From assembly GCA_964518085.1 (NCBI GenBank), contig CAZFEA010000001.1:1-29248 (forward strand): DNA of 29,248 nt, in the 5' to 3' direction. A program made the translations under genes and the position numbers. Below are positions 3,198-24,109 of this stretch, in pieces. The stretch comes from an uncultured Dehalococcoidia bacterium (GTDB taxonomy: Bacteria; Chloroflexota; Dehalococcoidia; JACQUA01). Position 1 is the first letter of the stretch. Each line of letters opens with the position of its first letter. Under the pieces are notes generated by a model, which was given only the letters and a program-made list of their open reading frames with translations, did no database searches and had not been told where the DNA came from.

Positions 3198-4484
3198 TCA
3201 ATTCAGCTTTTGCGCCAGTATTCCGGTTAACCCCAGGTCGTCGATTCGTTTTCTGATGTCACTGACGGTTTGCGGGTAAAGTCCCAGCCTTATCATCCGC
3301 TCAAGATAGTCCCCCTGGCCGGGACGGCAAAGCTGGTTCAGTCCCTCCTGGGTCCGGTTTAACTCACCCGTGAAACTGATGTAGTCCCCTATCGCGGTGG
3401 TGGCAGGCAAAACGGGTGGTCCGGTGCCGGCCACTTTTCTTGAGGCGTTATGTCCGGCAATGACACCCATGATCATACAGGTGTCCACGCCGCCGATCGG
3501 CCCGATCTTTTCACCACCGACAAAAAGGTTGTCGAAACCTGGCACCCTCAGGCTGTCGTCCCGGTGATGGATGGATACCTCTTTGACGAAGGTATGGACA
3601 CCGCCGCCCATGGGGTCTTCGATCATGGCTGTCTCAAAACCGGGTATGGTGCGCAGGTCGGCCACAGACATATAGCCCATTTTCGAACACTTGGCCATAG
3701 AGCCTATGTCGGAAAGGTTGACGTGCTCGACTTCCTCGTGGGACGAGATATTGGCCATCTTGCCGGCTTTCGAGTAGTCTACGAGGTGTTTGGGAAGGGG
3801 AATCTTCATCTGTCCTTTTTGCTCGAGCTCTTCCCTCAACTCCTTGCCCAGGCTGGCTTTGCTCAAACAGACCGCCAGGCCGAGGAGACCCCTGGTGCCG
3901 TCGGCCCTTCTCTGACTCAACTCCCTGGCCCCGGCTTTGGTGGCGATGCTTACCCGGTTGCCGAACGTGGGACACCTGAAGCTTCCGCACATGACGCATC
4001 CCAGGCCGTAGCGCCGGCAGATGTCCATCCCGCCGGTGGTGCCGGTGCAATCGACAAAGGCGCCGCCTCGCAGGACTTCGCCGCTGGCGAGCCGGACCGC
4101 CTCCAACCGTCCATCCTCTGTCAGCACATCAACCGCCCGGCTCATGAATCGTATGTCGACTCCACAGTCCAGGACCAGTTTCTTGACCGCTGGCTCCGCC
4201 AGGGCGCAATTGTAGATGTATCCGTATTCCATGTCCGGCTCATATAGCCGGTGAAGAATGATGGCGTCCAGTACATCCAGGATATCGCCGCCGGCCATGG
4301 CCCTGAGCTCTTCATTCTGGACCATCCGCCCGGTCATGTTGTAATGTCCGGCTCGGTTTCCTCCGGCCAGAAGCATGTCGGTCCGTTCCAGCAAAATCGC
4401 CTTGAGTCCGGCCCTGGCCACGGCGATGGCCGCGCCACAGCCGGCAAATCCGCCCCCTATGACTATGACAGTGTCTTTAGACAA
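3198..4484 (-). CDS. FAD-dependent oxidoreductase, GidA/TrmFO-related uncharacterised family, with a Cys4 motif
   Basis: VIGGGFAGCGAA Rossmann motif; C-x6-C-x2-C-x4-C (CRRYGLGCVMCGSFRC); C-terminal LFVGGEK...AGHNA. AGGAGG overlaps GTG4490, so TTG4484 (5 nt after the RBS) is the likelier start. Confidence 0.75.
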   Translation of the reverse strand: MSKDTVIVIGGGFAGCGAAIAVARAGLKAILLERTDMLLAGGNRAGHYNMTGRMVQNEELRAMAGGDILDVLDAIILHRLYEPDMEYGYIYNCALAEPAVKKLVLDCGVDIRFMSRAVDVLTEDGRLEAVRLASGEVLRGGAFVDCTGTTGGMDICRRYGLGCVMCGSFRCPTFGNRVSIATKAGARELSQRRADGTRGLLGLAVCLSKASLGKELREELEQKGQMKIPLPKHLVDYSKAGKMANISSHEEVEHVNLSDIGSMAKCSKMGYMSVADLRTIPGFETAMIEDPMGGGVHTFVKEVSIHHRDDSLRVPGFDNLFVGGEKIGPIGGVDTCMIMGVIAGHNASRKVAGTGPPVLPATTAIGDYISFTGELNRTQEGLNQLCRPGQGDYLERMIRLGLYPQTVSDIRKRIDDLGLTGILAQKLN

Positions 4485-4513
4485 ATGCACCTCCTGGGAG
4501 TATTGGCTATCTC

Positions 4514-5074
4514 TCAGGCGAACTGGATCATCCCCAACTTGGTGAACTGAATAGGAACAGTGACCTCGGGCGGAAGTGCCCCGAGTTGATGGAGGGCATA
4601 TTCCTGCTCGTATTTTGTCATGGCCATGACCCCATCTATCGGGATGATGGTCTCATAGCGATAGATGCGCGCTGAGGCGGTAGCGGTGTAAAGCACCGCC
4701 ATGTTGGTGGCCGCCCCGACGATGACCAGGTTCTCTGTCTGCTTGTCCTTCAACAGGCCGTCGAGTTCGCCGCCGGTGAATTTGTCGAAGCCGTTGGGGT
4801 GGATGACTGGCTCGGTTTCCCGTTTCTTCAGGGAGGAGGCAGGCTCTCCCCCGGGTGTGCCCTTGTGGATAAGGGAGATGGTGTAAATAACCGGCACAGC
4901 CAAGGCCCGCGCCCTTTCCAGGAACTCGCTTACACCTGGAAGGAGCAAAGAGCAAAAGACCCTGGGGTCCTGGCATCTGGCGCTCAGATCGAGCACAATA
5001 ATGGCGGTCTTGTTCCGGGCGAGGGTGACTGGCTTTGGCTCCGGTTTGCGGGGTCCACCGTCTTCTATGATCAT
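4514..5074 (-). CDS. Isochorismatase/cysteine-hydrolase fold protein lacking the catalytic Cys
   Basis: TAIIVLDL (Asp), FDKFTGGELDGLLK, LVIVGAATNMAVLYTA, IPIDG. RBS AAGGA. Confidence 0.8.
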   Translation of the reverse strand: MIIEDGGPRKPEPKPVTLARNKTAIIVLDLSARCQDPRVFCSLLLPGVSEFLERARALAVPVIYTISLIHKGTPGGEPASSLKKRETEPVIHPNGFDKFTGGELDGLLKDKQTENLVIVGAATNMAVLYTATASARIYRYETIIPIDGVMAMTKYEQEYALHQLGALPPEVTVPIQFTKLGMIQFA

Positions 5075-5101
5075 TGCTTTCCTTCTTTTATAATCATGCC
5101 A

Positions 5102-7258
5102 CTACGGGACCGGTATCAGTTCGGTATCCAGCAAAATACCGCACGATGGGCAGCAGGTCTGTTCCAGCAAGAAATAACCGGTCAGGTCCGCCATGAGCGC
5201 TCCGGCTTCAGTAGGGGGCAGGAGTTTCACGGTACATGCTTCCTTCCATTTTCTTGGCTCGCTGGAAAGCACGGCCAGGCACCGCTGGCAACGTATGGCC
5301 GAACGGTTCCGGTTAACTATGATCTCCATGTTTCCCCGAAACGGGCGGGTCTTTTCCGTTGTGGGGCGCCTGCCATGGCCGACGGCGCCGCTTTGGGATG
5401 CTCGCGCCGGCTTGAGGCGCGTTGCTGGCCGGCCGTTGAGACGCTGGCGGATAAGGGCCGTCCGTAAGTGGCGCGTGTCATCAAGATTCAATTTGCCTCG
5501 ATCAACGACTACGCCGTAGTACTGTTCGGCCGCCGCGGAGGAAACAAGTCCATTCCTCAGATCTTGCACTACGATCTGCGGGTCCCTTTCCAGGGGGTCC
5601 CCGTAACCGCCTCCGCAGGCCATCCTGAGATAAAGGACATCGTTGACCTGCAGATCGATGTCCTGGTAGGCCAGAGCCATTTTTCTTCCCTTGAGTTCAG
5701 CAAGGTCAACCGGAGGGCGGTTTTGGGCGAAAAACGCCTCCAGCTTCGTACTTTCAAACAAGTTGAGAAGACTGGGCGCTCCGGGGTAACCGCCGAAAAG
5801 ACCCTTCCCCGAGTTCTTCAGCCCGGCCACTCCGAGGGCAACTACCTTGATTTTTCCTTCCGCGGGCTTATAGGGGGCAAGGGCTACCTCGGTCCCTGCG
5901 CCGCCCCGGTACTTTCCGGCGCCGGCGCCATCCACAATATGCCGTCGGAAAAGGTAGATGACGGGGAAGTTGAGCTCAACCCACTCCACGTTGTGGCATG
6001 TCATCCCGATGCTGCCGGCGCTGGACGAGTTCATACCATCCTTACAGGATGTTGCCCCGCTGCCTCCTGATTCCAGCAAGGTGGAGACGTAATATTTTCC
6101 GTACTGGCTGATGCCGGCGTGCCTGGCGAAGCGGCCCATCAAGGTCGGCGCCATGACCTCGCGTTTCCACTTTTCGCTTGCCGCCACTGCCTGCATCAGT
6201 ACCGAAGCGGCAAGGTGTTTGACGGCCTGGGCGCCGGAGGTGGTGTTCAGGGATACCGGGGCCGGGTTCTGGACATTGACCACGCACCCTTCAGGTGCGC
6301 TCACCTCCATCGGGCCGAAGGCGCCCTGGTTGCGCGGGATGTCATAGGCGAAAGTGCACAGGACTTCCTGGAAGCAACAACCGAAGGTGGCATGATAGGG
6401 CAGGTTGATGCCTTTTTCGGCCTGCCTGTCCGTCCCGGCAAAATCGAAAATCAGCCGGTCGCCTTTCTTGTTCAACGTCAGCTTTACCTTCCAGGATTTG
6501 TCGGCCTGGATGGACAGAGAATCAGTCCACGAACCGTCGGGAATTTCAGCTATCCTCTTCCGTAAGATAGATTCCGAATAGCGGATCATCTGGGCCGAAA
6601 CGGCCTGGATCAGTTCCAGCCCGTACTGCTTGATCATATCCTGCATTCTGGCCTTGGCGACGTTGTTGGCCGCAATTTCACATTTCAGGTCCAGGCCCAC
6701 CATCACCGGTTGCCGGGTCATGTTGACCACTGTCCTGAAAACGTCGTTTCGCGTCTGCCCCCGCTCGACCAGCTTGATCCCCGGGATCCTGATACCCTCG
6801 TGGCATATTTCGGTTGCCCCGGGGGAGTTCCCTCCGGGTGACATGGCACCAATGTCCATTACATGGACAAATGTGGCGCTCCAGCCGACGAGGCGGCCTT
6901 GGTAGTGAATCGGGGATACGACATACATGTCTGACTGGTGAATCGCGGCCAGATAGGGGTCATTCAGCAAGAACATGTCGTCGGGATAAATGTTGCCGTC
7001 CTTTCCGAACTGGTCGATAATCTTCTTCACGGCAAACCCGGCGCAAACGGCGTGCATTCCCATCATCGCCTGGCCCACCGATAGCACCTCGCCGGAAGGT
7101 GTGTACAGCGCCGCCAGGTAGTCTTTGAGCTGCGTGGTATTAACCGTGCCCCCCACGTGTTCCAGGGTAATAGCAATTTCCTTGGTGATCTGGTAGAGGC
7201 GATGAGACAGTATTTCAAAAGTAATGGGATCGACAGTTGACACCGGCGGCGCCTTCAT
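5102..7258 (-). CDS. Hydantoinase B/oxoprolinase/acetone-carboxylase-alpha family subunit fused to an acetone-carboxylase-gamma-like Cys4 domain
   Basis: DPITFEI, NDPYLAAIHQSD, HVMDIG, EGIRIP, GAGKYRGG, GGGYGDPLERD; C-terminal CQRC...WK...CCPSCGILLDTE. RBS AGGAG overlaps the upstream TAG. Confidence 0.88.
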   Translation of the reverse strand: MKAPPVSTVDPITFEILSHRLYQITKEIAITLEHVGGTVNTTQLKDYLAALYTPSGEVLSVGQAMMGMHAVCAGFAVKKIIDQFGKDGNIYPDDMFLLNDPYLAAIHQSDMYVVSPIHYQGRLVGWSATFVHVMDIGAMSPGGNSPGATEICHEGIRIPGIKLVERGQTRNDVFRTVVNMTRQPVMVGLDLKCEIAANNVAKARMQDMIKQYGLELIQAVSAQMIRYSESILRKRIAEIPDGSWTDSLSIQADKSWKVKLTLNKKGDRLIFDFAGTDRQAEKGINLPYHATFGCCFQEVLCTFAYDIPRNQGAFGPMEVSAPEGCVVNVQNPAPVSLNTTSGAQAVKHLAASVLMQAVAASEKWKREVMAPTLMGRFARHAGISQYGKYYVSTLLESGGSGATSCKDGMNSSSAGSIGMTCHNVEWVELNFPVIYLFRRHIVDGAGAGKYRGGAGTEVALAPYKPAEGKIKVVALGVAGLKNSGKGLFGGYPGAPSLLNLFESTKLEAFFAQNRPPVDLAELKGRKMALAYQDIDLQVNDVLYLRMACGGGYGDPLERDPQIVVQDLRNGLVSSAAAEQYYGVVVDRGKLNLDDTRHLRTALIRQRLNGRPATRLKPARASQSGAVGHGRRPTTEKTRPFRGNMEIIVNRNRSAIRCQRCLAVLSSEPRKWKEACTVKLLPPTEAGALMADLTGYFLLEQTCCPSCGILLDTELIPVP

Positions 7259-7267
7259 GACTATCTC

Positions 7268-9370
7268 CTACGACCGCAGAAAGATGACGATATTGCGAAA
7301 TTCATCCATGGTTGCTCGTGTGCCGGGGTTTACCACGACCGTGGTTACGGGTGTCTCGATTATGGCCGGGCCGGGCGCTTCGAATCCGGGTTGCATTCGT
7401 TCGAAATCGTAAATGTCTGTCGGTATAAACCCCCGGTGTTCTTCGAAGTATACCTCTCTACTGCCTTTTCGCGACCGTTCAGCCGGCGCCTTCTTGATGG
7501 CTTCTCTCTTGATATTGGGTTTTCTCAGGCGACCGATGGCGTCAATACGGAAGGTGGTGATCTCTTTTCCTGCCTCGGCATAGCCCGACCCTTTGCCATA
7601 GGACTTTTCATACAGTTCATCGAACAGAGAGTACAGCTTCTCCATGTCCCCCGGACTAATATCAGTCATTCCCGCCGGAAAGGGCACGTTCAACTCGTGG
7701 ACCTGGAACCGGTATCTCATATCTACGCTGCGAACGATTTCGATATCGTCGTTTCCAAACCCCGCGGCATGGAGTTGCTCCAGCGCCTGTGCGCACAGGC
7801 TGGAGAAGTTGGCATTGACGCGGTCAACATCTACCGGGACCATCAGCCTGTCTGACCTGGCAAATTGATGGACTACGTCGGAACTTATCAGCCCCATCGC
7901 CCCCTGGACGGAGGCGGTCATGGGGACGACGATCTTTTTGATCCCGAGTTCCGCCGCGAACCTTCCGGCGTGCACCGGTCCGGCGCCGCCGTAAGCAAAA
8001 AGGGCGAAGTTCCGCGGATCGTTGCCTCTCTCGACCGTGGCGCGGCGCACGAGATCACACATATGAGCATTGGCTATGCGAAAGATGCCGTTGGCGGCCT
8101 CAGTTTCGCCCAGGTTCAGCGGGTGGGCAATCTTCTCTCTAATGGCTTGCAGCGCTGCCTGTTTGTCCAGCCTCATTCGTCCACCCAGGAAATAGTCCTC
8201 GTTGAGATAACCCAGCACCAGGTCGGCGTCAGAGACGGTGGGTTCCGTCCCTCCCATCCCGTAGCAGACCGGTCCCGGTTTCGCCCCGGCGCCTTGAGGT
8301 CCCACTTTCAGCAAGCCTGTCTCGGAATCGATCCAGGCGATGCTTCCCCCGCCGGCTCCAATCGATTCGATCCATATTTTCGGCGACAAAATGTTATAGC
8401 GCAGGATAACCGGTGCATATTCCCTTTCGCACGTGCCATCCCGGATTATGCCAACCTTGAAGGTAGTGCCACCCATATCCGTAGCCAGGATGTTGCGTTC
8501 GCCGCTCAGGTCACCAAGGAACTTGCTGCCCAGCACTCCGGCGGCGGGCCCGGACTCAATGGTACCGATGGCGTTCCGGCTGGTCGCCCGCATGCTCAGG
8601 ACGCCGCCGTAGGCCTGCATTACCATAGGTTCTTCCCGCAACCCCCTGGAGTGCAACGCTTTCAAAAGGTCCTGAAGGTAAGAAGAAATTTCGGGGCCGA
8701 TATAGGCGCTGAAAATGGTGGTGGCAGTGCGCTCATATTCGCCAAGGAGAGGGGCCACCTCGCTCGAAATGGCTACATGCACCGATGGGTGATTCGCTTT
8801 CAGTATGCCGGCCAGCGCCTTTTCGTGGCGGTCATTGGCGAGGGACCATAGGAGGCAGATGGCGACCGAGTCCACCCCCTTTTCGATTAACTCTTTGACA
8901 ACCCGGGCAGCATCCGCCGTGTCGAGGCTAATCAGGACGTCACCCTTGTAGTCGATACGCTCATTCACTTCTGTGATGAGAGGCCTGGTAACCAGGGGTT
9001 CTGGCTTGGTAAGGGCTGACAGGTGAGACGCCTCGGTTTCCGTCAGTCCTTCGGTCACCTTGCTTCGCATTATGAGGATGGTGTCCGCGAAGCCCCTGGT
9101 GGTTATAAGGCCGGTCCTGGCCCCGGAACGCGTTATGAGGATGTTTTCTCCCACCGTGCAGGCATGGAAAAAGTACTTTGTCCGCCGGATGAGCTCATCT
9201 TCGCTGGCCAAACCAAGTTTTTCTGACAGGTCGCGAACCGAGTCGATGACGCCGATAGAGAAGTCGCCGGGCGTGGACAATGCTTTTCCCAGGGACAACC
9301 GGCCGTGTTCATCGACTCCTACACAGTCGGTAAATGTCCCGCCAATGTCCACCCCTATTATGTATTCCAT
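7268..9370 (-). CDS. Hydantoinase A/oxoprolinase (ATP-binding, acetone-carboxylase-beta family) subunit
   Basis: IGVDIGGTFTD, SGPAAG, DMGGTTF, IGAGGGSIAW, GPVCYGMGGTEPTVSDA, GGAGPVH, DMRY. Confidence 0.92.
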   Translation of the reverse strand: MEYIIGVDIGGTFTDCVGVDEHGRLSLGKALSTPGDFSIGVIDSVRDLSEKLGLASEDELIRRTKYFFHACTVGENILITRSGARTGLITTRGFADTILIMRSKVTEGLTETEASHLSALTKPEPLVTRPLITEVNERIDYKGDVLISLDTADAARVVKELIEKGVDSVAICLLWSLANDRHEKALAGILKANHPSVHVAISSEVAPLLGEYERTATTIFSAYIGPEISSYLQDLLKALHSRGLREEPMVMQAYGGVLSMRATSRNAIGTIESGPAAGVLGSKFLGDLSGERNILATDMGGTTFKVGIIRDGTCEREYAPVILRYNILSPKIWIESIGAGGGSIAWIDSETGLLKVGPQGAGAKPGPVCYGMGGTEPTVSDADLVLGYLNEDYFLGGRMRLDKQAALQAIREKIAHPLNLGETEAANGIFRIANAHMCDLVRRATVERGNDPRNFALFAYGGAGPVHAGRFAAELGIKKIVVPMTASVQGAMGLISSDVVHQFARSDRLMVPVDVDRVNANFSSLCAQALEQLHAAGFGNDDIEIVRSVDMRYRFQVHELNVPFPAGMTDISPGDMEKLYSLFDELYEKSYGKGSGYAEAGKEITTFRIDAIGRLRKPNIKREAIKKAPAERSRKGSREVYFEEHRGFIPTDIYDFERMQPGFEAPGPAIIETPVTTVVVNPGTRATMDEFRNIVIFLRS

Positions 9371-9400
9371 GTCGCTGAGGTCCTCGCTCTCTGGTTGGGC

Positions 9401-10570
9401 TTACTTTTGCATCACCGGCCTGAATATTTCTTTAGCTAGCTGGATCAGCTTGGGTCTCTCGATCATTTGCTCTTCACTGTCAGTCGATATCAGTTTGGCC
9501 CCTTCCTGGGGCACGTATGCCGGATCGATTCCTGAAGTGTCTACGTCGGCCCGGGCGCTGGGAGGTCCGTAGTTCTTCTGAAACAGGGCTTGCGTGTCTT
9601 TAGTCAGTAGCCAGTTGACGAACACTATGGCCGCATTGGGGTTGGCAGGCCGGTCGATGAGGGATACCACGCCGCCGCTGTAGGTCAAGCCAATTCCCTC
9701 ATGGGCGGCCTTCCATTTTATGGGAGCCCCGGCCCTCTTGAACTCGTCGAAGGTCTGGACATCCGGAGCAATAGACAAGGGGTATTTGTTTCTGGCCAGC
9801 CACTCAACCTGCTGGCGCTTGTCGGCGATCAGTAGCGGCTCTTGCTTTACAAACTGCTGCAGGTAGTCTTTGCCTCCATCTTGACCAAAAATGGCAAACA
9901 TCAACGCCACCCAATAGCTACCTCCCCCCGATATGGTTGGGTCCATTGTGGTTATCTTGCCTTTCCACTTGGGGTCGAGGAGGTCGCGGTAAGACTTAAT
10001 TTCGGCTTCCTGGACCGCGTCGGAATTCGCAGCCAGAAAACTGGCAGTCCGATGAACGAATGCCAGGGACAGTCCTGTTTGATCGACCAAGGGGAGTTCC
10101 TTGCCGCGCCATTTGGTAGCATCGGTAACCTCCGGCAAGATCAGGGCAGGCTTCAACGGTTGTAACACGCCCTGTGGCTTCATGATCAGCAGCAGTGTCG
10201 AAGTTCCCGCGATCACGGCATCAGCCAGGTATAGCCCGGCCCTTCTTTCGGCCTGGATGCGGGCCATGGACTCCTCACCTCTGCCAACGATAAAATCGAT
10301 ATTGATGCCGAACTGTTGCCTGAACGCTTCTTTTAGAGCCTGAGTGGTCGCCGGGTTGGCCGAGGTGTGGACCACCACCGTACCTTCGGTCCTGGCTTTG
10401 GCGACGGTGCTGTCCCACCGGGCTTGCCACGAGGATTTTTCCGGGCCGGTTTGCGCCGCCGTGGTTGGTTTGGTTGGACCAGGCGACAAAGGAGCCGCCG
10501 GCCCCCCACAGGCAACAGCTATGGTGAGAAGAATACCGGCAAAAGGCAATAATAGATGACTGGCTTTCAT
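9401..10570 (-). CDS. Extracellular solute-binding lipoprotein (Fe3+/thiamine/polyamine-type, COG1840-like), no cognate permease nearby
   Basis: Signal peptide with lipobox IAVAC, Pro/Thr-rich linker, WKGKITTMDP, NPNAAIVFVNWLLTKDTQ. ATGA overlap with the upstream gene. Confidence 0.85.
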   Translation of the reverse strand: MKASHLLLPFAGILLTIAVACGGPAAPLSPGPTKPTTAAQTGPEKSSWQARWDSTVAKARTEGTVVVHTSANPATTQALKEAFRQQFGINIDFIVGRGEESMARIQAERRAGLYLADAVIAGTSTLLLIMKPQGVLQPLKPALILPEVTDATKWRGKELPLVDQTGLSLAFVHRTASFLAANSDAVQEAEIKSYRDLLDPKWKGKITTMDPTISGGGSYWVALMFAIFGQDGGKDYLQQFVKQEPLLIADKRQQVEWLARNKYPLSIAPDVQTFDEFKRAGAPIKWKAAHEGIGLTYSGGVVSLIDRPANPNAAIVFVNWLLTKDTQALFQKNYGPPSARADVDTSGIDPAYVPQEGAKLISTDSEEQMIERPKLIQLAKEIFRPVMQK

Positions 10571-12168
10571 TTGACCTCCATTCTCAATTTGACACAGTCG
10601 ACATTCAAGGGCTTTTCGTCACGGTCCAGTTGTACTCTGGTAGTTTTATAAAACAAAGGGTCTTTGGTCGGGTAGTCTTCACGATAGTGGGGACCCCGGC
10701 TTTCCTTCCGGAATTCAGCGGACCTGAGCAGGGCTTCGGCCAGCAGTAACATGTTCTCCACTTCAATAGCTTCCTTCAAGTCGGGGGTATTATCTGCACT
10801 CAGATTCTTCTTTTCTTCTTTTATCCGCGTCAGCTCATCGATACCGGCGAGCAATGAAGGTCCACTCCTTACCGGGCTCATGCGTTTATTGACCAGCTCG
10901 CGAATCTTCTTTCTTAGCTCCAGCGGCCGCCTTTTTCCGTTCTTCAGCGATATTTCTTGTAGAAACTCCTTTTGCCTGTCAGTCAGCCCGGTTCTCTCTT
11001 GTTCCAACTCCTTGCATGTTTGGGCCGCGTTCTTTCCAGCTTCGATCCCCATGACCAGGCACCTGGTCAAATGGTTTACACTATTCTCCCCGGCGTAGGT
11101 ACCGCTGACCATTTCTCCCGCGGCGAAAAGCCCGCGCAGTTGGGTCTCCCCTGTCTTGTCGGTGGTAACCCCTCCCAGGTATGTGTGCCCGATGGGAATC
11201 ATTTCCACCGGAAATCGCTTCACATCGCGGGGACATTTTGCCAGTTTCATTCTGGTACGAGGGTGCATCTTGGACCAGTCGGCGGACGATATCCCGGTCA
11301 TGTCCAGGAAAACGGGTCCCCCTTCCATCTCCATGATCTTCTCCGACTCTTCAAACTTGAAAGAAGCATAGCGGCATACCTGTTCCCATCTTAGACCTAG
11401 ATACTTTCGCACCAGGTCTTCACCCTTCTTGTTCACCAGACGGACGCCCTTGACCGTTATGATTTCGCTGATTATGTCCCCTTGCCAGGGGAAGGCCACC
11501 CCCACAAAACCGACTTCAAACTGTATGAATTCCATATTGGTTAAGGGTAAGCCTGCTCTCAAAGCCATGGCATATCCGTCGCCGACGAGCGACCTGGGGC
11601 TGGAGGTCTCTTTGAACAGCGATGCCCCTCCGCCCGTCGCCAGAATGGTGCATCCCGCTCTGAGGACCAGGACGTCCCCGTTCTGATCAAGGCCTGCAGC
11701 GCCAATACATTGTCCTTCCCGGACCAGTAAATCTACTATGAGGCAGTTGCCGATGGCGCCAGTCCCCGATTCCTTGAGTTTTTTCCTGAGAGCCTCAACT
11801 ACGGTGACCCCGTCCTCTTCGTCCTCTCTCCTTGGTGTCAAATACCACTCTCCGTAGGCCTCCAGGGGAACGCCGAGGTTTTTGAGCCATAGAATACCCT
11901 CTTTTGCCCGTTCAAGATGCATTTTGACCTGTTGCTCGTCAAAAATGTATCTTTGGGGACTTGAATCGTATCCGGGTAAGTTAAGCTCTTGAGTGGTGTA
12001 TTTGAACCAGGCGCCGGAAAAGTAAGTGGCGCTCTGTTTGCCGATGCCGGCTTTCGATACCAGAAGAACATCACGCCCTTCCTCTCTGGCTCTTATAGCG
12101 GCAGCCAGCCCGGCTATTCCGGAACCGATAACCAGCACGTCCGTGTTTCGTTCTTTGGAATCCAGCAT
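10567..12168 (-). CDS. SdhA/FrdA/NadB-family flavoprotein with a non-canonical active site
   Basis: DVLVIGSGIAG, LATGG, GDGYAMA, NMEFIQF, HTYLGGV, LFAAGE, RKESRGPHYREDYP. ATG12168 preceded by AAGGGA is preferred over the track start at 12210. Confidence 0.85.
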   Translation of the reverse strand: MLDSKERNTDVLVIGSGIAGLAAAIRAREEGRDVLLVSKAGIGKQSATYFSGAWFKYTTQELNLPGYDSSPQRYIFDEQQVKMHLERAKEGILWLKNLGVPLEAYGEWYLTPRREDEEDGVTVVEALRKKLKESGTGAIGNCLIVDLLVREGQCIGAAGLDQNGDVLVLRAGCTILATGGGASLFKETSSPRSLVGDGYAMALRAGLPLTNMEFIQFEVGFVGVAFPWQGDIISEIITVKGVRLVNKKGEDLVRKYLGLRWEQVCRYASFKFEESEKIMEMEGGPVFLDMTGISSADWSKMHPRTRMKLAKCPRDVKRFPVEMIPIGHTYLGGVTTDKTGETQLRGLFAAGEMVSGTYAGENSVNHLTRCLVMGIEAGKNAAQTCKELEQERTGLTDRQKEFLQEISLKNGKRRPLELRKKIRELVNKRMSPVRSGPSLLAGIDELTRIKEEKKNLSADNTPDLKEAIEVENMLLLAEALLRSAEFRKESRGPHYREDYPTKDPLFYKTTRVQLDRDEKPLNVDCVKLRMEVK

Positions 12169-12261
12169 CTGTCTGTTTCCCTTAAAGCAGGTTTGAGAAT
12201 TGTACTGCAATTGCTTATGGAGTGTGACTGTCGGCCAGGATGTTCATGACCTGGTCCGAAC

Positions 12262-12487: not shown

Positions 12488-12994
12488 ATGAAGCGGGACA
12501 CCAGTCCACAAACTGTAAAGTTCAGGGTTAACGGAAAGCCGTTTGAGCTTTTGCTCGGCTACCAGGTGACCGAGTGGGACACATTGGCCGAGACCCTGAG
12601 GAAAACCCTGGGGCTTACGGGGACGAAGATTGGCTGCGACAGTGGCGAGTGCGGCGCCTGTACTGTCATCATGAATGGGCAGTCTGTGCTTTCCTGCACC
12701 ACTCTGACGGTGGAATGTGATGGGAAAGATATTACTACCATTGAGGGATTGAGAGACCCGGTAACGGGGAAACTGCATGCCCTTCAGCAGGCATTCATCG
12801 ACCACGATGGAATGCAGTGTGGTTTCTGTACCCCGGGAATGATCATGCAGGCTAAAGTCCTGCTTGATAAGAACCCCAGTCCCACTGAAAAGCAAGTCAA
12901 AGAGGCACTGTCCGGGAACCTGTGCCGCTGCGGCTCTTATCAGAAGATCGTCGGGTCGGTGTTAGCCGCCGCATCCCTGATCAAACGCAATTAA
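12488..12994 (+). CDS. Xanthine dehydrogenase/CoxS-family small subunit (2x[2Fe-2S])
   Basis: GTKIGCDSGECGACTV...SC; QCGFCTPGM; NLCRCGSY. Confidence 0.95.
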   Translation: MKRDTSPQTVKFRVNGKPFELLLGYQVTEWDTLAETLRKTLGLTGTKIGCDSGECGACTVIMNGQSVLSCTTLTVECDGKDITTIEGLRDPVTGKLHALQQAFIDHDGMQCGFCTPGMIMQAKVLLDKNPSPTEKQVKEALSGNLCRCGSYQKIVGSVLAAASLIKRN

Positions 12995-12997
12995 AAG

Positions 12998-15343
12998 ATG
13001 CAAGAGCAACTTTCCTTCATAGGAAAACGTCTGCCCCGGTTTGGCGCTATCGATATCGTCACCGGAAGCGCCCGATTTACCCAGGATGTGTTCCTGCCGG
13101 GAATGCTCCACGGCACTCTGCTGTGCAGCCCGCACCCGCATGCAAAGATTGTTAGTATCGAGACCGGCGAAGCCGAAGCTCTGCCCGGTGTGAGGGCGAT
13201 CATAACCCATAAAGACACGGAGCATTTCCCGGATGCCGCATCCACCCGTGACGTTGAGCCGCTGAGAATTCTAGGCGGCACGCTTTATTTTGTAGGGGAC
13301 TATGTGGCGGCGATAGCGGCCGAAACCGAAGAGATAGCTGAGCAAGCGGCGCAGCTCATACAGGTGCAATACCAGCTACTGCCGTCTATTTTCGATACTG
13401 ATGGGGCGATGAAGCCCGAAGCCGCCGTCCAGTACGGTTGCTGGCCGTGGAACGTATGGAACTCCAGGGAACGCGGCGCACCCTCGCTGGAGATCGACAA
13501 GACAAAGCTGACCGGCGGCAATGTGGAGAAAGGCTTCGAAAATTCACATGCCATCGCAGAGGAGGAAGTTCACACCCAGGTTGGGCTTCATGCCCCGCTC
13601 GAGACAGAGACCATCATCGTGGTATGGGATGCCAATGGCATCTGCAACGTATGGTCCAAGGAAAGTCCCCATCGCCTGGTCGAGTGGTTCTGGCCGATCC
13701 TCTCCAGGGTTTACGGGACGCCCATGAACAAGGTCAGGGCTATCTGCCACCATGCCGGGGGACGCTTTGGAAAGCACGTGGATTTGCGAATCCTGGCAAT
13801 GGCCACGGAGTTGGCCAGGAAGACCGGCAGGCCGGTCCGGTTCTGTAATTTGAGGGATTGGGAATATCACTGGGCTCGAGCCATGACCCACAGCCTGGTA
13901 AGAATGGGCGGCAAACAAGACGGCACAATCACTGCCATCGACATGAAGACCATCACCAACTTCGGCATGGCCCATCGTTCTGCCCGCATTGAGCTGGGGA
14001 ATATCGGGCGAGCCCCGAACTGGACGTGGAAATGTCCTGATACCCGTTATGTGAACTACGGGGTATTCACTAATTCCGTCGGCACCGGCTCATTCCGCGG
14101 CTTTGGGTCAACCCAGGGGCATTATGCAGTCTCCCAGGCGTGCGATGTGCTGATAGAGAAGTTAGGGGTTGATCCTGCCGAGTTTTATTTGAAAAACCAC
14201 TCGGGCGCCGGGGACTGGTGGGAACACCAGAAACAGACGCCGAGCGGACTCGACGAGTGCATCGGTAAGGCCACCGACGCCATAGGCTGGAAGCAGAAGC
14301 GGCACAAGCCCGGGGAGAAGACGCTTTCCGACGGAAGAAAGCACGGGATCGGCATGGCGATTGCTGTCCATAGCGGAGGTGGCTCCACCACCCCCGGGGC
14401 GGCCCTGGTCGAAGTTAATCGGGACGGCTCCGTTCAACTATTTGCTGCCGGTGATGAAACGGGGCAGGGAGTTTACACTGTCGAGGCTGCCATTTGCGCC
14501 GAGGAACTGGGGGTGAGATTTGAAGATGTGAGGGTGGTGCGCGCCGATACCGAGTCGGCGCCGCTGGCATCTTTCTCGGCGCACAGTCAGAATACCTGCA
14601 ACATGGGAGGTGCAGTGCAGCTTGCGGCCAGAGACGCTAAGAAAAAGCTTCTGGCCCTGGCGGCCAGTGAGCTGGGTGTCCAACCGGAAGAACTGCAGGC
14701 GAGGGAAGGATGGGTCTATGTCATCGCCGATCCGGTCAGGCGAATCGAGATCAGCGCGGTCACGGCGAAGTACGTCGGTTCCCGGGCAGTTGTCAATTCG
14801 AAGCCAATTGGATGTCGGATTGATGGGTACGGCTGGTACGCACAGTGGGAGAACGTACCGTGGACGCCAGAGGGGCCGGAAGGTTCGCTGGTACCCAAGA
14901 CCTGGATGTGTCACATAGCAGAGGTAGCTGTGGACACGGAGACCGGAGAAGTGGAGATATTGAAATACGTAAATGCCCAGGATGTTGGCAGGGCCATAAG
15001 CCTCAATACGGCTGAGAATCAATTACTTGGATCAGCCTTGATGGGTATCGGCTATGCGCTCAAAGAGGACTTTGTGCGCGACCCGAAAAATGGACAGGGA
15101 CTCAACCCGGGGTATCTGGACTACAAGATACTGACCCACCTCGACGTGCCTCCCACCACAGCCATCCTTGTCGAGTCTGTCAACCCGAACACCCCGTTCG
15201 GGGCCAAGGGAATTGGCGAGGGGTCCCTGATTCCCGGCGCTCCAGCCGTTGCCCATGCTATTTACAATGCAATCGGTGTGCGCCTGAACAGTTTGCCGAT
15301 GACGCCCGATAAGGTGCTCAGGGCGCTGGGTAAGATTAGCTAA
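12998..15343 (+). CDS. Xanthine dehydrogenase/aldehyde oxidoreductase-family molybdopterin-binding large subunit
   Basis: SPHPHAKI, HAPLE, GGRFG, GSFRGFG, ETGQG, VDTETGEV, Y-K-I, GAKGIGE (catalytic Glu). No AYxCSFR CO dehydrogenase motif. Confidence 0.93.
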   Translation: MQEQLSFIGKRLPRFGAIDIVTGSARFTQDVFLPGMLHGTLLCSPHPHAKIVSIETGEAEALPGVRAIITHKDTEHFPDAASTRDVEPLRILGGTLYFVGDYVAAIAAETEEIAEQAAQLIQVQYQLLPSIFDTDGAMKPEAAVQYGCWPWNVWNSRERGAPSLEIDKTKLTGGNVEKGFENSHAIAEEEVHTQVGLHAPLETETIIVVWDANGICNVWSKESPHRLVEWFWPILSRVYGTPMNKVRAICHHAGGRFGKHVDLRILAMATELARKTGRPVRFCNLRDWEYHWARAMTHSLVRMGGKQDGTITAIDMKTITNFGMAHRSARIELGNIGRAPNWTWKCPDTRYVNYGVFTNSVGTGSFRGFGSTQGHYAVSQACDVLIEKLGVDPAEFYLKNHSGAGDWWEHQKQTPSGLDECIGKATDAIGWKQKRHKPGEKTLSDGRKHGIGMAIAVHSGGGSTTPGAALVEVNRDGSVQLFAAGDETGQGVYTVEAAICAEELGVRFEDVRVVRADTESAPLASFSAHSQNTCNMGGAVQLAARDAKKKLLALAASELGVQPEELQAREGWVYVIADPVRRIEISAVTAKYVGSRAVVNSKPIGCRIDGYGWYAQWENVPWTPEGPEGSLVPKTWMCHIAEVAVDTETGEVEILKYVNAQDVGRAISLNTAENQLLGSALMGIGYALKEDFVRDPKNGQGLNPGYLDYKILTHLDVPPTTAILVESVNPNTPFGAKGIGEGSLIPGAPAVAHAIYNAIGVRLNSLPMTPDKVLRALGKIS

Positions 15344-15344
15344 G

Positions 15345-16328
15345 ATGAGGCCGTTTGAGCACGTCAATGCCCCGACGCTGGAAGATGCGATTGCGGCGGC
15401 GCAGGGGAACTCCAGAATCATTGCCGGCGGCACAGATTGCTTGAGCATCTTGAAAAACGGCCTCCTTCCCGTCTATCCTGAGGTCCTGGTCAATATCAAG
15501 ACCATCCCCGAGCTGGAATATATTCGCCCGGACTCCGACGGGCTCAGGATAGGGTCCATGACCAGGCTTGTCGCTGTGGAAGATTCTTCCGTTATTAAGA
15601 CTGAATACCCGGCCCTGGCCGAGGCGGCGCGGTTGATAGCCTCACCGCAAATACGAAACATGGCTACCGTTGGCGGCAATTTGTGCCAGGAAGTGCGCTG
15701 CTGGTACTACCGGCGTTCCCCGCGCACCGGGAGAGACTATGTGTGCTTTCGGAAGGGGGGAAAGGTATGCTTTGCCGTTGACGGAGACAACCGGTACCAT
15801 GCTATTATCGGAGGCAAACGTTGTTTTGCTGCCTGCCCCTCAGACCTGGCCGTTGTCCTGACAGCCCTGGATGGCAGGATTATCGTTCAAGGGAAGGCCG
15901 GAGAAAAGAGCATTTCCATGTCTGATTTCTACAGCCCCATGGGAAATGTCCTGAGTCCTGATGAGATAATAAAAGAAATTAGAGTTCCCACCCCTCCGAG
16001 GGGGTCCAGGCAGGCTTTCATCAAATTCCGGTTGCGTAAGGCCATCGATTTTGCGGTGGTCAGCGTGGCTTCGGTCGCTGTGATCGACAATGGTGTCTGC
16101 CGCGACGCGAGGATTGCCCTTGGGGCAGTAGCGCCTGGTCCCCTGCGGGCAACCCGAGCGGAAGAAACCATCAGAGGCAAGACCGTAGAAATTGCGACAG
16201 CAGAGGCGGCGGCAACGGCTGCGGTGAAAGGCGCGAAACCGCTGTCTATGAACGCCTATAAAGTCGAGATAGCAAAGGCGCTGGTGAAGAGAGCCTTGCT
16301 CTCAGCAACGTCAGCCGTGACGAAATAA
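15345..16328 (+). CDS. FAD-binding medium subunit with a PaoB/HcrB-type Cys insertion
   Basis: IAGGTD, IRNMATVGGNLCQ, RCWYY...CFRKGGKVC...RCFAACPSD, RKAIDFA, LGAVAP, NAYKV. Confidence 0.9.
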   Translation: MRPFEHVNAPTLEDAIAAAQGNSRIIAGGTDCLSILKNGLLPVYPEVLVNIKTIPELEYIRPDSDGLRIGSMTRLVAVEDSSVIKTEYPALAEAARLIASPQIRNMATVGGNLCQEVRCWYYRRSPRTGRDYVCFRKGGKVCFAVDGDNRYHAIIGGKRCFAACPSDLAVVLTALDGRIIVQGKAGEKSISMSDFYSPMGNVLSPDEIIKEIRVPTPPRGSRQAFIKFRLRKAIDFAVVSVASVAVIDNGVCRDARIALGAVAPGPLRATRAEETIRGKTVEIATAEAAATAAVKGAKPLSMNAYKVEIAKALVKRALLSATSAVTK

Positions 16329-16350: not shown

Positions 16351-17787
16351 TTAAAGCGCAGGATGCCTGGTATGCCAGGGGGTAGCTTGCTCATAGGCGT
16401 GTGCGACGCGCATAACCGTCGTTTCCTCAAACGGCCGTCCGGCAAGCTGCAGTCCGATGGGGAGGCCGTTCCTGGCAAACCCGCAGGGAACTGAAAGCGC
16501 CGGCATTCCTGTCAGGTTGTACACAATTCCGTAAGCCATATCGGGCGGCCCGGCTACTACCTGGCCGTCTACGTGGATCACTCCTGCGGCGGCTTCCTTC
16601 AAGGTCTGGCCGGCGACGGGCTTCATGGGCGTCGCAATCACATCGACTTTGCGCAGAGCTTCATCAAATTCGCGGATCAGTATCCGCCTTGCCTTTTGGG
16701 CGTCAATATAAAACGACGCCGGCATTACCCTTGCCACCAGGTACCTTACAACTATGTCTGCACCCAAGTCTCTGATCGAACCATTGTAGCGTCTGAGCAG
16801 ATCGCGCAGCCGGGTGGCGTGCCCCTCGGCCATCAAGATCGGCGACTCCATTGCCGCGGTGTACTCCGCCTTAGCATGGGGCAAAGACACCTCATCCACC
16901 GCCATTCCCAGGCTTTCCAGGACACAGACAGCCTCGCTGATTGCTCTACTTACCTCGGTTGATACAGAAGTATAAGGCTCTCTTGGTATCCCAACCCGCA
17001 ACCCCTTGACATTGCCGTTCAGACCGGCCCTGAAATCATGCACGGGCATGCGGGCACTGCCAGGGTCCCTTTCATCGTAGCCGGACAGGATGGCGAGGAC
17101 GATGGCGCAGTCTTCTACCGTCCGGGTAAGGGGGCCGGTGTGGTCCACCGATGACTGGGGAGCGAAGACCAGTCCATACCGGCTGACCCGTCCGTATGTC
17201 GGTTTGAGCCCGACGATGCCGCAGGCCTGGGCAGGGTATCTGATAGACCCGGCCCCATCGGTTCCCAGCGCGGCGGCGCATAAGCCGGCAGCTACTGCTG
17301 CTCCCGAACCGCCGCTGGAACCCCCGGGGGTGTAGTCGCGGTTCCAGGGATTGAGGGTTGTCCCGAAGTGCGGGTTGATGGTGGAGCCGCCATACGCCAG
17401 TTCATGCAAATTCAGCTTGCCGGTGATAATCGCGCCGGCCCTTTTGAGGCTCTCCACAGAGGCGGCATCGTGGTCGGGGATAAAGTCCTTCAAAAGCTTG
17501 GAACCTCCAGCAGATCGCACCCCCTTCATGCCCAGATTGTCTTTAATGCCGACGGGGATGCCGTGCAAAGGGCCCTTATATCCTCCACGGGCTATTTCGC
17601 CCTCGGCGACTATCGCCGCCCGCCGGCTTTCCTCTTCGAGCAAGTTCACGTAGCAATGCAAAGTAGGGTCTACGGCTTTGATCCGGGCCAGGTGGGCCTC
17701 GCAGACTTCCCGGGGAGAAACGGCCCTGCGGGCAATGAGACCAGAAAGGGCGGCAATGGAAGAGTAGACCAATTCTGGCTGGTTCAT
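16351..17787 (-). CDS. Amidase signature family (GatA/AtzE-like) amidase
   Basis: Lys in GIKDN, GKLNLHE, PGGSSGGSGAAVAAG, GTDGAGSIRYPA, GLKPTYG, LPIGLQL. Confidence 0.93.
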   Translation of the reverse strand: MNQPELVYSSIAALSGLIARRAVSPREVCEAHLARIKAVDPTLHCYVNLLEEESRRAAIVAEGEIARGGYKGPLHGIPVGIKDNLGMKGVRSAGGSKLLKDFIPDHDAASVESLKRAGAIITGKLNLHELAYGGSTINPHFGTTLNPWNRDYTPGGSSGGSGAAVAAGLCAAALGTDGAGSIRYPAQACGIVGLKPTYGRVSRYGLVFAPQSSVDHTGPLTRTVEDCAIVLAILSGYDERDPGSARMPVHDFRAGLNGNVKGLRVGIPREPYTSVSTEVSRAISEAVCVLESLGMAVDEVSLPHAKAEYTAAMESPILMAEGHATRLRDLLRRYNGSIRDLGADIVVRYLVARVMPASFYIDAQKARRILIREFDEALRKVDVIATPMKPVAGQTLKEAAAGVIHVDGQVVAGPPDMAYGIVYNLTGMPALSVPCGFARNGLPIGLQLAGRPFEETTVMRVAHAYEQATPWHTRHPAL

Positions 17788-18084: not shown

Positions 18085-19220
18085 TCATTTACGCAGGGCG
18101 GAGAAAATCTCGCCTACCCTGTCGCGGATCGCCGCCTGGGTGCGCAGGTAGGCTTCATCGGGAACGCTCGCCCCCGCGGGTGGCAGCACCAGCGGATCGA
18201 AACTGTCGGTGGGAACATCCACTCGCTGCGACGGGAAGCCCTGGGCCGGGGCCCACACCGAGGCGCCTTCCTTGCTCACCAGCCAGTTGACAAAGAGTTT
18301 TACCGCGTTGGGGTGAGGGGCCTTATCGAAAACGAAGAGATTACCGGCGCCCGAAGCCAGGAAAGGCGGCTCCTTCAAAATGGTGAAAGCTATCGGGGCG
18401 CCCAATTTCTTGAACTCGGTGAACATGGCCGAGCTCTGTCCGATGCCTACAGGGTATTTCCCGCGGGCCACCCATTCCAGCATCATGCGCTGGTCCCTGG
18501 TCATGACCGGTTCATTGGCCGCCAACTGGCGCAGTATTTCCAGCGTCCCGTCGACGCCGAAGATTTCCTTGGCCATGAGGGTGATGAAGCTGAGGGATGC
18601 GCCGGGGACGGCCGGGTCCGACAGCACCATCTTGCCCTTCCACTTCGGCCCGACGTAATCCAGGAAGGAGGTTATTTCTCCTTCCCTTATTATGTCGGTG
18701 TTGTGGATAGAGGGCCGGTTGGCCATGGCCACAGTTACCAGGAGATGGCGGTCTTCGTCCAGGTAGGGAATCTTCCCGTTGCGCCACCTGCCCGGGTCGG
18801 TGACCTCGGGCAAGACCAGCAGTTCCGGCAGGGGAACAGTGATCGCCATGGGCTTGATGTCAACAAAAAATGGACCGTTTCCGGTCAGGCCGGCGTCGGC
18901 CCAGTAGAGTCCGGCCCTTCTCTCGGCCTTGATCTTGGCAATGACCTCGGTGGCGCGTCCCTCAGTGGCTTCGATGTCTATGCCGAATTTTGCCTTGAAG
19001 GCCCGCTGGATGGCGGCTTTGGCCGGGCCCCAGTCCGAGCCAACAGGTTCACCGTGCCCTCCTTCTGGGCGGCCTTGACCAGCTCGTCCCACGAGTTGGC
19101 CGGGGGCGCCGGCGCCCTGACCGGCGGCGTGGGGGCGCCCGTGGGCTGGGCCGGCGCCGCGCAGGCGACGATCAGGACCATCAGAAACGCTGCACCAATC
19201 AAACTTGAACACTTTTTCAT
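18085..19220 (-). pseudogene. Solute-binding lipoprotein paralog split by a 1-nt deletion at about 19039-19041
   Basis: ATG19220 (RBS AGGAG) gives MKKCSS...IVAC...QKEGTVNLL in one frame; the homologous remainder SDWGPAKAAIQRAFKAKFGIDIE...FSALRK is in the -1 frame. Junction: GTG AAC CTG TTG GC TCG GAC TGG. Confidence 0.8.
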
Positions 19221-19430: not shown

Positions 19431-19479
19431 TGTCACCTGTTGCCTGTTACCTGTTGCCTTTTTCCTTTCGCCTTTTACC
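19431..19479. repeat. Seven degenerate tandem heptamers TKTYDCC
   Basis: TGTCACC TGTTGCC TGTTACC TGTTGCC TTTTTCC TTTCGCC TTTTACC; the last base overlaps the stop codon of the 19479-20237 gene. Confidence 0.8.
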
Positions 19480-20237
19480 TATTGATACAGCGTCCGGAAA
19501 ATCCTCCCCCAGGCCTTGACCGGCTCTTTGATACCCAGCGCCTTGAGTCCGGCCCAGATGGTGACCTGCCGGCTGTGAATGGCCGGGACGCCGCAGTCCT
19601 GTTCCAGACGATCAATGACCCACGGGGGACACCAGGCGCCGCAAGGGAGATATATGGCTTCCGCCTGAGGCGCCTCCAGGAACGCCTGCCTGCCCACGGC
19701 ATAAGCCGCGCTCCGCGGCAGGTCGTCGATATCGCGGTTCAGCGTCAGGTTGAGACTCTTTATATGGATTACCTCGAAGCCGCTGGACTCCAGGAATCTT
19801 TTGGTCCGCTGGTCCGATTCCTGGTTCATGGGCGAAGCGATAACCAGCTTTTTAACTTTCAAGGTGCGAAGGGCATCGACGGCGGCAGTCAGAGAGGTGG
19901 TTGCCGGGACCCTGGCCACCTCTTTCACGCGCCGGATGATTTGCTGGTCAGCCCCCGGTCCCTGCATCGAGACCAGCGGCGTCCCTTCGACGAAAATGAA
20001 TTGGGAGCCGGCCGCGGCCAGTCGCTTGACGGCATCGTCCAGCTTGGACAGGGCCGTTTCCACCTGGTCGTCGGTGAGGGAGGTTATTCCCAGGGTGGCA
20101 ATCTTCAGTTCCAGGCCGTCGGGCACGGCGGAATGGAAGTCCACCAGGGCCAGAGACGATGGGGTGGCGGGGCAGACCCAGCCCAGTTTTCCCCTCCATC
20201 CGGCTACGCCGTCGGTTGCTGGTATGTCAGCAGGCAT
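19479..20237 (-). CDS. Asp/Glu racemase superfamily, maleate isomerase/arylmalonate decarboxylase-like protein with a single catalytic Cys
   Basis: KLGWVCP, FVEGTPL, VPATTSLTAAVDALRTL, IYLPCGAW, GVPAIHS...WAGLKALG. RBS AAGGAG. Confidence 0.85.
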   Translation of the reverse strand: MPADIPATDGVAGWRGKLGWVCPATPSSLALVDFHSAVPDGLELKIATLGITSLTDDQVETALSKLDDAVKRLAAAGSQFIFVEGTPLVSMQGPGADQQIIRRVKEVARVPATTSLTAAVDALRTLKVKKLVIASPMNQESDQRTKRFLESSGFEVIHIKSLNLTLNRDIDDLPRSAAYAVGRQAFLEAPQAEAIYLPCGAWCPPWVIDRLEQDCGVPAIHSRQVTIWAGLKALGIKEPVKAWGRIFRTLYQ

Positions 20238-20255
20238 TTCAAGTCTCCTTCAGAG

Positions 20256-20284
20256 TGTCATTGCGAGCGCAGCGAAGCAATCCC
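20256..20284 (+). repeat. REP-like palindrome TGTCATTGCGAGCGCAGCGAAGCAATCCC
   Basis: ATTGC...GCAAT arms around a GCGCAGCGA core; resembles a widespread GTCATTGCGAG...GCAATC intergenic repeat type (recalled, not searched). Confidence 0.55.
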
Positions 20285-20287
20285 GTC

Positions 20288-20323
20288 CCCCTCACCTTAA
20301 TCCTCTCCCTCAAGGGGAGAGGA
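20288..20323 (-). repeat. REP-like element family 2 (TCCTCTCCCC-TTGA-GGGAGAGGATTAAGGTGAGGGG)
   Basis: Matches 24192-24227 at 34/36 in inverted orientation; contains the TAA stop of the 20297-21997 gene. Confidence 0.85.
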
Positions 20324-24077: not shown

Positions 24078-24109
24078 TGGCCGTCTCCTGACTCAAATGA
24101 GGGTAGGGC

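Follow-up and report, generated by a model that had tools for sequence, protein, structure and literature searches.

In the window analysed here, the 29,248 nucleotides (nt) of contig CAZFEA010000001.1 from an uncultured Dehalococcoidia bacterium, the open reading frame (ORF) 5102-7258 on the minus strand encodes, as judged from its sequence, a HyuB-type metal-binding subunit to whose C-terminus the family's small four-cysteine (Cys4) zinc-ribbon gamma subunit is fused. This B-gamma fusion is widespread in uncultured bacteria. An earlier note on the window, made from the letters alone, had described the ORF as a Hydantoinase B subunit with a gamma-like tail and had assigned it to a two-gene, ATP-dependent, carboxylase-like enzyme; the architecture it proposed is upheld below, while the carboxylase identity does not follow. 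The ORF is intact, with 718 amino acids (aa), an ATG start and a TAG stop in the translation, and comprises the following features.

5102..7258, minus strand: B-gamma fusion gene, complete (ORF list and translation; 46 full-length fused homologs, 54-71% identity)
5594..7231, minus strand: Hydantoinase_B domain, beta-type metal-site subunit, aa 10-555 (PF02538, Foldseek)
7121..7123, minus strand: Asp46, predicted first metal ligand, after the invariant T41-T42-Q43 (HMMER alignments; invariant in the 46 fused homologs)
6929..6940, minus strand: His107-x2-Asp110, predicted metal ligands, in IHQSD (HMMER alignments; invariant in the 46 fused homologs)
6863..6865, minus strand: His132, predicted fourth metal ligand, in FVHVMD (HMMER alignments; invariant in the 46 fused homologs)
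5354..5437, minus strand: basic low-complexity linker, aa 608-635, not present in relatives with a separate gamma gene (predicted local distance difference test (pLDDT), alignment, ends of those relatives)
5105..5353, minus strand: gamma-like Cys4 zinc-ribbon domain, aa 636-718, about 83 residues (PF08882, PDB profile matches, fold match)
5279..5290, minus strand: first putative zinc knuckle, C657-x2-C660 (sequence; invariant; equivalent to Cys22/Cys25 of the gamma subunit of acetophenone carboxylase, Apc)
5141..5152, minus strand: second putative zinc knuckle, C703-x2-C706, CPSC (sequence; invariant; equivalent to Apc gamma Cys75/Cys78)

A gamma-like zinc ribbon fused to a HyuB-type subunit

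The Pfam family Hydantoinase_B covers aa 10-555 along its whole profile (positions 1-519 of 519), with 388.5 bits against a gathering score of 26.8 (E 5.5e-116). The full-length AlphaFold2 (AF2) model has a pLDDT of 85.2 and a predicted template-modelling (TM) score, pTM, of 0.88, with a confident gamma domain. When it is compared with the PDB by Foldseek, its B part matches 5l9w_A (5e-44) and also 9h03_A, 5m45_A and 6yra_B; besides such B-type chains, the single confident match is a gamma chain of acetone carboxylase (Acx).

The comparison of the tail with the hidden Markov model (HMM) of Acetone_carb_G (PF08882), which the earlier note had proposed as a check, gives a mixed answer. The tail of the window alone scores 19.3-20.0 bits (E 0.0013 and 8e-4), slightly under the 21-bit gathering score, but 25 of 33 homologous tails match the family at E<=0.01, the best of them at 2.7e-8. 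As a phmmer query, the 99-aa tail alone finds no match in the PDB or NCBIfam, and a profile of homologous tails was therefore needed; the top PDB matches of this profile are all gamma chains (5svb_C, 2.4e-4; 5m45_C, 3.7e-4; 5l9w_C, 0.041). The AF2 model of the 84-aa tail, with a pLDDT of 94.5, gives a concordant picture: its five best Foldseek matches are Acx or Apc gamma chains (5m45_C, 5svb_F, 5svb_C, 5svc_C and 5l9w_C; TM 0.67-0.76, probability 1.00), and the sixth has a probability of 0.08. Sequence profile and predicted fold both show the tail to be a homolog of gamma in the acetone and acetophenone carboxylases. Residues C657, C660, W671, G686, C703 and C706 are invariant in the alignment of the 46 fused homologs, and the four cysteines correspond to Apc gamma Cys22, Cys25, Cys75 and Cys78, which form the proposed structural zinc site of that subunit (PMC5214803).

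Between the two domains lies a linker that is neither folded nor conserved. In the full-length model, aa 614-630 fall below a pLDDT of 50 and aa 636-716 are well folded, and the 46 fused homologs share no consensus in the linker. In the relatives of the same clade where gamma is a separate gene (hereafter split relatives), B counts about 600-611 aa, is 59-68% identical to the window protein and stops where the linker of the window starts, the separate gamma then beginning with MNxPLRENLE. The gamma pattern that the earlier note had seen behind a basic, low-complexity linker is thus borne out by the tail profile, the PDB gamma-chain matches, the fold, the four cysteines and the disorder of the linker, as is the Hydantoinase B assignment by PF02538.

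The metal site of the B domain was examined in HMMER alignments with the reference enzymes, whose ligand numbering was taken from PMC8453981. D46, H107, D110 and H132 stand opposite D65/H123/D126/H148 of ApcD, D41/H99/D102/H124 of the caprolactamase subunit CapB and E89/H150/D153/H175 of Acx alpha, and all four are invariant across the 46 fused homologs. The Asp-His-Asp-His quartet is thus intact, including the H-x2-D and H ligands that had been recognised earlier (H107-x2-D110 and H132). The earlier note had also read an N-terminal Glu as replaced by Gln. This substitution is real with respect to the RESxD motif, whose Glu is present in N-methylhydantoinase-type proteins and in the second B paralog of the window, and is Gln43 in B-gamma; no ligand is lost, however, Asp46 being the predicted ligand and being retained. 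As the position of Gln43 is Leu in CapB, Val in ApcD and Gln (Gln86) in Acx alpha, the residue found there would say little about chemistry.

Gamma is split, fused or lost among relatives

A scan of 185,579 species genomes yielded 78 loci. Nearly all lie in metagenome-assembled genomes (MAGs) assigned to Candidatus Binatia, to Thermodesulfobacteriota/Syntrophobacterales ('Deltaproteobacteria') or to Chloroflexota/Dehalococcoidia, and a genome frequently carries several of them as paralogs. When the 88 B genes of the main clade (scan loci, four further loci and the window) were typed with local HMMs and domain coordinates, gamma was found to be split in 46, fused in 14 (the window among them, and one locus counted in three copies), and absent from 28. 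Phylogeny was approached by a rough neighbour-joining (NJ) tree of the clade, and placement relative to the reference enzymes by bit-score rankings. In this tree, the fused genes, including that of the window, form one subclade and the gamma-less genes another, while in the Chloroflexota members at the base gamma is split. As a split gene, L018, falls within the fused group, the tree is compatible with more than one count of fusions and fissions.

The split arrangement is compact. In two split relatives, gamma genes of 90 and 96 aa have their start 4 nt ahead of the B stop codon, an isochorismatase-like gene comes next, and the gamma products are 40-41% identical to the tail of the window protein; a third locus (L040) has the same arrangement with a gamma gene of 85 aa. 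In the split relative at L001 5826-7978, HyuA is called in four pieces, which may reflect long-read frameshifts or a decaying gene.

Fusion is found outside the main clade as well. Two far more divergent lineages are also fused and exceed the Pfam threshold for PF08882: P0255, 29% identical to the window protein (39 bits), and L021:19622-21886 (35.8 bits). When 1.84 billion representative proteins were searched with a profile of the gamma domain, 555 of them contained it at E <= 0.001. Among the best 150 of these 555, gamma stands alone in 86, is fused to B in at least 40, many of them cut short by contig ends, and is fused to an isochorismatase-like domain in three. The B-gamma fusion is thus common in environmental genomes of Binatia, Thermodesulfobacteriota and Chloroflexota. 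None of the enzymes studied so far is known to carry it, and no counterpart was found in solved structures by PDB sequence and profile searches. It is far from rare, with a whole subclade, at least two divergent lineages and the fusions just counted. Our literature search found no paper describing a B-gamma fusion or such an enzyme in Binatia, and nothing relevant on NMHase structures; public records name fused and split relatives merely 'hydantoinase B/oxoprolinase family protein' or 'N-methylhydantoinase B'.

The gamma-less sister subclade comprises loci L021, L026, L031, L033, L036, L037, L038, L044, L048, L051, L055, L056, L058, L059, L061, L064 and L072. In these, B lies mostly near 9750-11820, with the isochorismatase-like gene directly after it; most have a B2-type hydantoinase pair about 3-5 kb off, and some a distant B-gamma fusion about 8 kb off. 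Individual Binatia genomes carry at least three paralogous loci of the clade (OZ253480.1 with L026, L030 and L011; OX638375.1 with L017, L044 and L046; OY282432.1 with L025, L043 and L059); this lineage-specific expansion suggests that the substrates are many and varied.

The operon of the fused gene and the other genes of the window

B-gamma is the fourth gene of a minus-strand row that reads, 5' to 3', flavoprotein, solute-binding protein, HyuA, B-gamma, isochorismatase-like protein and FAD oxidoreductase, with gaps of -4 to 30 nt. Its neighbours are the following.

10567..12210, minus strand: FRD/SDH-like flavoprotein (Pfam, NCBIfam)
9401..10570, minus strand: solute-binding protein (Pfam, NCBIfam)
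7268..9370, minus strand: HyuA-type ATP-binding partner, 700 aa (Hydant_A_N, Hydantoinase_A, Hydant_A_C)
4514..5074, minus strand: isochorismatase-like protein (IHL; PF00857), 27 nt downstream of B-gamma
3198..4490, minus strand: FAD oxidoreductase (GIDA/FAD_oxidored type), 430 aa, last gene of the apparent operon (Pfam)

The flavoprotein and solute-binding genes (9401-12210) overlap by 4 nt, and HyuA ends with its stop codon 9 nt ahead of the start of B-gamma. HyuA, which matches 5l9w_B with 396 bits and 6yra_A with 385 bits in the PDB, immediately precedes B in 81 of 86 related loci; by analogy with the known enzymes, HyuA (7268-9370) and B-gamma would together amount to an alpha-beta-gamma protomer made of two polypeptides. 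At L084, the locus of the closest homolog (71% identity), the genes follow in the same order as in the window from the solute-binding protein onwards: HyuA, HyuB-gamma, IHL and an FAD oxidoreductase of 428 aa.

IHL is the commonest companion of the system. It is found downstream of B in 30 of the 46 split loci and 20 of the 28 gamma-less loci, in addition to the locus of the closest homolog. In the alignment, the position of its nucleophile is Ala in the window (GAATNMAVLYTA, compared with GVCTDICVLHTA in 6kua), and 46 of the 50 IHL partners of related loci likewise have Ala in place of the nucleophile Cys, with Asp and Lys conserved. A role as an amidase of the N-carbamoylsarcosine-amidase type, in a pathway of hydantoinase then amidase, is rejected on account of this replacement. 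IHL may instead have no catalytic role as a subunit, or may be a hydrolase of the vinyl-ether type, and neither the Apc paper nor NCBIfam gives any link between IHL and the epsilon subunit of Apc. Three proteins carry the gamma zinc ribbon N-terminally fused to an IHL domain: P0132 (272 aa), P0158 (275 aa) and P0173 (a fragment). Gamma can be joined to either of its neighbours, B or IHL.

Beyond the operon, the window contains a divergent oxidoreductase and a second hydantoinase system.

12488..16328, plus strand: three-subunit XDH-family molybdenum (Mo) hydroxylase (2Fe-2S, Mo-binding and FAD subunits), divergent from the B-gamma operon
16351..17787: amidase, beside the second hydantoinase system
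18085..19212: solute-binding protein, beside the second hydantoinase system
19479..20237, minus strand: gene of the Amdase/Asp-Glu/hydantoin-racemase family, after HyuB2
20297..21997, minus strand: HyuB2, 566 aa, hydrolase-type by PDB ranking, overlapping HyuA2
21987..23984, minus strand: HyuA2, of the second hydantoinase system (19479-23984, probably to 24077)

The second HyuA/HyuB2 pair lies about 13 kb from the B-gamma operon. HyuB2 has no gamma domain, in agreement with what the earlier note had said of the second B paralog, and no other ORF of the window is gamma-like. The listed ORF of HyuA2 begins after the essential ATP-binding motif GVDVGGTFTD, which is in frame upstream and has no ATG, GTG or TTG ahead of it; at 24075-24077 (minus strand), an ATA codon follows by 6 nt a perfect AGGAGA at 24084-24089, which suggests either a non-canonical ATA start or a base error. 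The XDH-type Mo hydroxylase fits the hydroxylation of an N-heterocycle to a lactam. There are also two pairs of an FRD/SDH-like flavoprotein and a similar solute-binding protein (9401-12210 and 26725-29219, both minus strand); no genes for membrane-anchor or Fe-S subunits were seen beside either of them, and the flavoproteins are probably soluble, substrate-specific oxidoreductases.

Comparison with known systems

AcxABC of Xanthobacter autotrophicus (5M45, 5SVB, 5SVC) consists, like the B-gamma system, of a HyuA-type ATP subunit, a HyuB-type metal subunit and a small Cys4 zinc gamma, encoded in the order A-B-gamma that is also seen in the window and in split relatives (PMC5214803). Its gamma fold matches the tail (TM 0.67-0.68), the His-Asp-His ligands are shared and Gln occupies the position of Gln43. 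Acx gamma is, however, a separate chain of 168 aa with an N-terminal extension, and the HyuB-type subunit, which matches B with 116 bits and 21% identity, has 776 aa with terminal extensions, whereas the B part of the window protein has about 600. The first ligand is Glu89 where B-gamma has Asp46, the active-site metal is Mn and the substrate is acetone.

The best match of B is the Apc core, ApcABCD, of Aromatoleum aromaticum (5L9W; 191.7 bits, Foldseek 5e-44, TM 0.76), and its gamma is also the best fold match of the tail (TM 0.76), with an equivalent Cys4 site. Apc nevertheless needs a second HyuA-like subunit (alpha-prime) and an epsilon subunit, and the operon 3198-12210 has one HyuA and neither of these extra subunits. 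The Apc genes are ordered apcABCDE, with gamma before alpha, and Apc gamma is a separate chain of 129 aa. The NCBIfam equivalog models for ApcD and ApcC give 208 and 439 bits, each against a cut-off of 1500.

The caprolactamase CapAB of Pseudomonas jessenii (6YRA) resembles the B-gamma system in its two-gene A/B composition, in the tetrad D41/H99/D102/H124 and in that CapB is devoid of the Glu of RESxD. Like the other two-subunit ATP-dependent lactamases, hydantoinases and oxoprolinases, it has no gamma subunit or domain, and B is of about 580 aa. The NCBIfam scores for CapB (211 bits) and CapA (567 bits) stand against a cut-off of 1000 in both cases, the CapA model giving the highest score of HyuA. 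The Hyd branch of Weidenweber et al. is defined by a hydAB cluster without a gamma ortholog (PMC5214803), a description that fits the gamma-less sister subclade but not the window, where a gamma domain is present. Also close are the split relatives in Binatia, Thermodesulfobacteriota and Chloroflexota MAGs, which have the same operon order and the same Cys-less IHL, and differ in having a separate, overlapping gamma and no linker.

Hydrolase or carboxylase

The likeliest chemistry, to which we give about an even chance, is that a stable cyclic amide, imide or ureide (an N-heterocyclic lactam) is opened by ATP-dependent hydrolysis. Several observations lean this way. Genes for beta-keto-acid metabolism (CoA ligase, CoA transferase, thiolase) are not conserved beside the B genes of the clade. 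In the fused Binatia subclade, Amidohydro_1, amidase and CN_hydrolase genes precede B-gamma in 8-9 of 12 loci, the Amidohydro_1 and CN_hydrolase neighbours being specific to this subclade and not clade-wide. The first ligand is predicted to be Asp, as in CapB and Apc, and not the Glu of Acx, and CapA and Apc alpha give HyuA about the same score. In the window itself, the context includes the XDH-type Mo hydroxylase, the amidase and the second hydantoinase cluster with its racemase-family gene.

The same machinery serves both chemistries, since CapAB, a hydrolase, also requires bicarbonate (PMC8453981), and the Apc authors likewise caution that sequence alone cannot tell them apart (PMC5214803). 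B-gamma could, with HyuA, form a carboxylase of the Acx/Apc type, encoded by two genes and dependent on ATP and bicarbonate, in which an enolisable, ketone-like substrate and bicarbonate are phosphorylated at HyuA and joined at the B metal site, gamma being the mark of a carboxylase. We regard this as the main alternative, less probable than hydrolysis, and most of the points that speak for it also weigh against hydrolysis. Among characterised enzymes, gamma is confined to carboxylases and serves as their marker (PMC5214803, PMC4959651), and the tail shares its homology and fold. ApcD is the top PDB match of B by sequence (191.7 bits, versus 164 for CapB) and by fold, whereas the paralog HyuB2 of the same window ranks hydrolases first. 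The gene order is that of acxABC, Gln43 corresponds to Acx alpha Gln86, and the B part, at about 600 aa, exceeds a typical Hyd beta. Two further points also weigh against hydrolysis. The commonest partner, IHL, has no Cys nucleophile and cannot be counted as a downstream amidase, so that what first seemed the best argument for hydrolysis in the operon of the window has to be dropped. Gene contexts moreover vary between subclades, and the substrates therefore probably differ.

Carboxylation is, in turn, made less probable by the ApcD equivalog score, far under its cut-off, and by an identity of 20-25% to ApcD and Acx alpha; by the lack of an alpha-prime or epsilon subunit and of an Acx-type Glu as first ligand; by the loss of gamma in the sister subclade with the operon unchanged; and by the neighbours, which are amidohydrolases, amidase, CN_hydrolase, Mo hydroxylase and solute-binding proteins instead of conserved genes for beta-keto-acid activation. 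What stands of the earlier proposal is the two-gene architecture; a carboxylase identity does not follow when operons that are otherwise the same have gamma as a separate gene, fused or not at all, and when the contexts point to C-N bond catabolism and not to the carboxylation of ketones.

A third reading gives IHL an active part. The Cys-less IHL would be an accessory or second catalytic subunit of a four-component machine, docked via gamma and, for example, using its Asp/Lys pair to hydrolyse an intermediate of the enol, imidate or vinyl type, a chemistry undescribed for the family. In its favour, IHL stands directly after gamma or B, often overlapping it, in 50 of the 74 split and gamma-less loci and directly after B-gamma in the window; gamma-IHL and B-gamma fusions both exist, which is a Rosetta-stone pattern; and the replacement of the nucleophile by Ala with Asp and Lys kept, in 46 of 50 partners, is what a non-amidase role would lead one to expect. 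Adjoining, overlapping genes nevertheless fuse readily without physical interaction, gamma-IHL fusions number three among the best 150 representatives, and the IHL gene is missing from 11 of the 12 fused B-gamma loci of the genome scan. This machine is, in our judgement, distinctly unlikely. The related proposal that the gamma zinc ribbon is a docking module recruiting the Cys-less IHL, in an alpha-beta-gamma-IHL machine with an undescribed ATP-dependent transformation of an N-heterocycle, seems rather unlikely; gamma would then be no marker of carboxylases.

Finally, a frameshift or lost stop that joined B and gamma during sequencing or assembly is conceivable in that the two genes overlap by 4 nt in most relatives and a single indel could join them, but such an artefact is most improbable and is rejected, as the fused form has an extra linker of about 30 residues that is not in split forms, fusion is also seen in each of the three closest homologs (68-71% identity), whose assemblies are independent, and 46 full-length fused proteins, some of them encoded on complete MAG chromosomes, align from end to end.

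Role of gamma and proposed mechanism

In Apc, the small subunit wraps around beta, is embraced by the C-terminal arm of beta, lies far from the proposed active sites and was judged not to be required for the core's integrity (PMC5214803). In the clade studied here, the gamma-less subclade keeps its HyuA-HyuB-IHL operon unchanged, and gamma appears from these gene contents to be dispensable. The distance from the active sites in Apc, together with a subclade that lost gamma and kept its operon, leads us to propose that gamma is probably a structural zinc-ribbon brace and that the fusion fixes stoichiometry and assembly without bringing a new activity.

The system could work as follows, by analogy with the structures of Apc, Acx and CapAB. 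The small Cys4 gamma, normally the product of a separate, translationally coupled gene, would be held to B by the disordered basic linker of about 30 residues. ATP used at the ASKHA-type site of HyuA would activate the substrate, bicarbonate, or both, and the activated species would pass through an internal tunnel to the D46/H107/D110/H132 site of the B domain. The gamma domain would bind a structural zinc and clamp onto B away from both active sites. If the chemistry is the opening of a lactam, the adjacent solute-binding protein may serve for uptake, and the oxidoreductases and hydrolases encoded nearby may then make or use this lactam.

Implications for the family

Genome annotators rely on gamma, as does the primary literature (PMC5214803, PMC4959651), to tell ketone carboxylases from ATP-dependent hydantoinases and lactamases. 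What is new here is a natural B-gamma fusion within a large, unstudied clade whose members have gamma as a separate gene, joined to one neighbour or the other, or not at all, and this clade, with operons that have the look of C-N catabolism, undermines gamma as a functional marker. If its enzymes are hydrolases, the gamma marker fails, and calls of 'acetone carboxylase' made from gamma in metagenomes need to be revisited. If they are carboxylases, Binatia and their relatives hold a large set of CO2-fixing enzymes that nobody has yet studied. The single-chain B-gamma would be a convenient construct for expression and crystallisation, and for testing the role of gamma, in a poorly sampled family.

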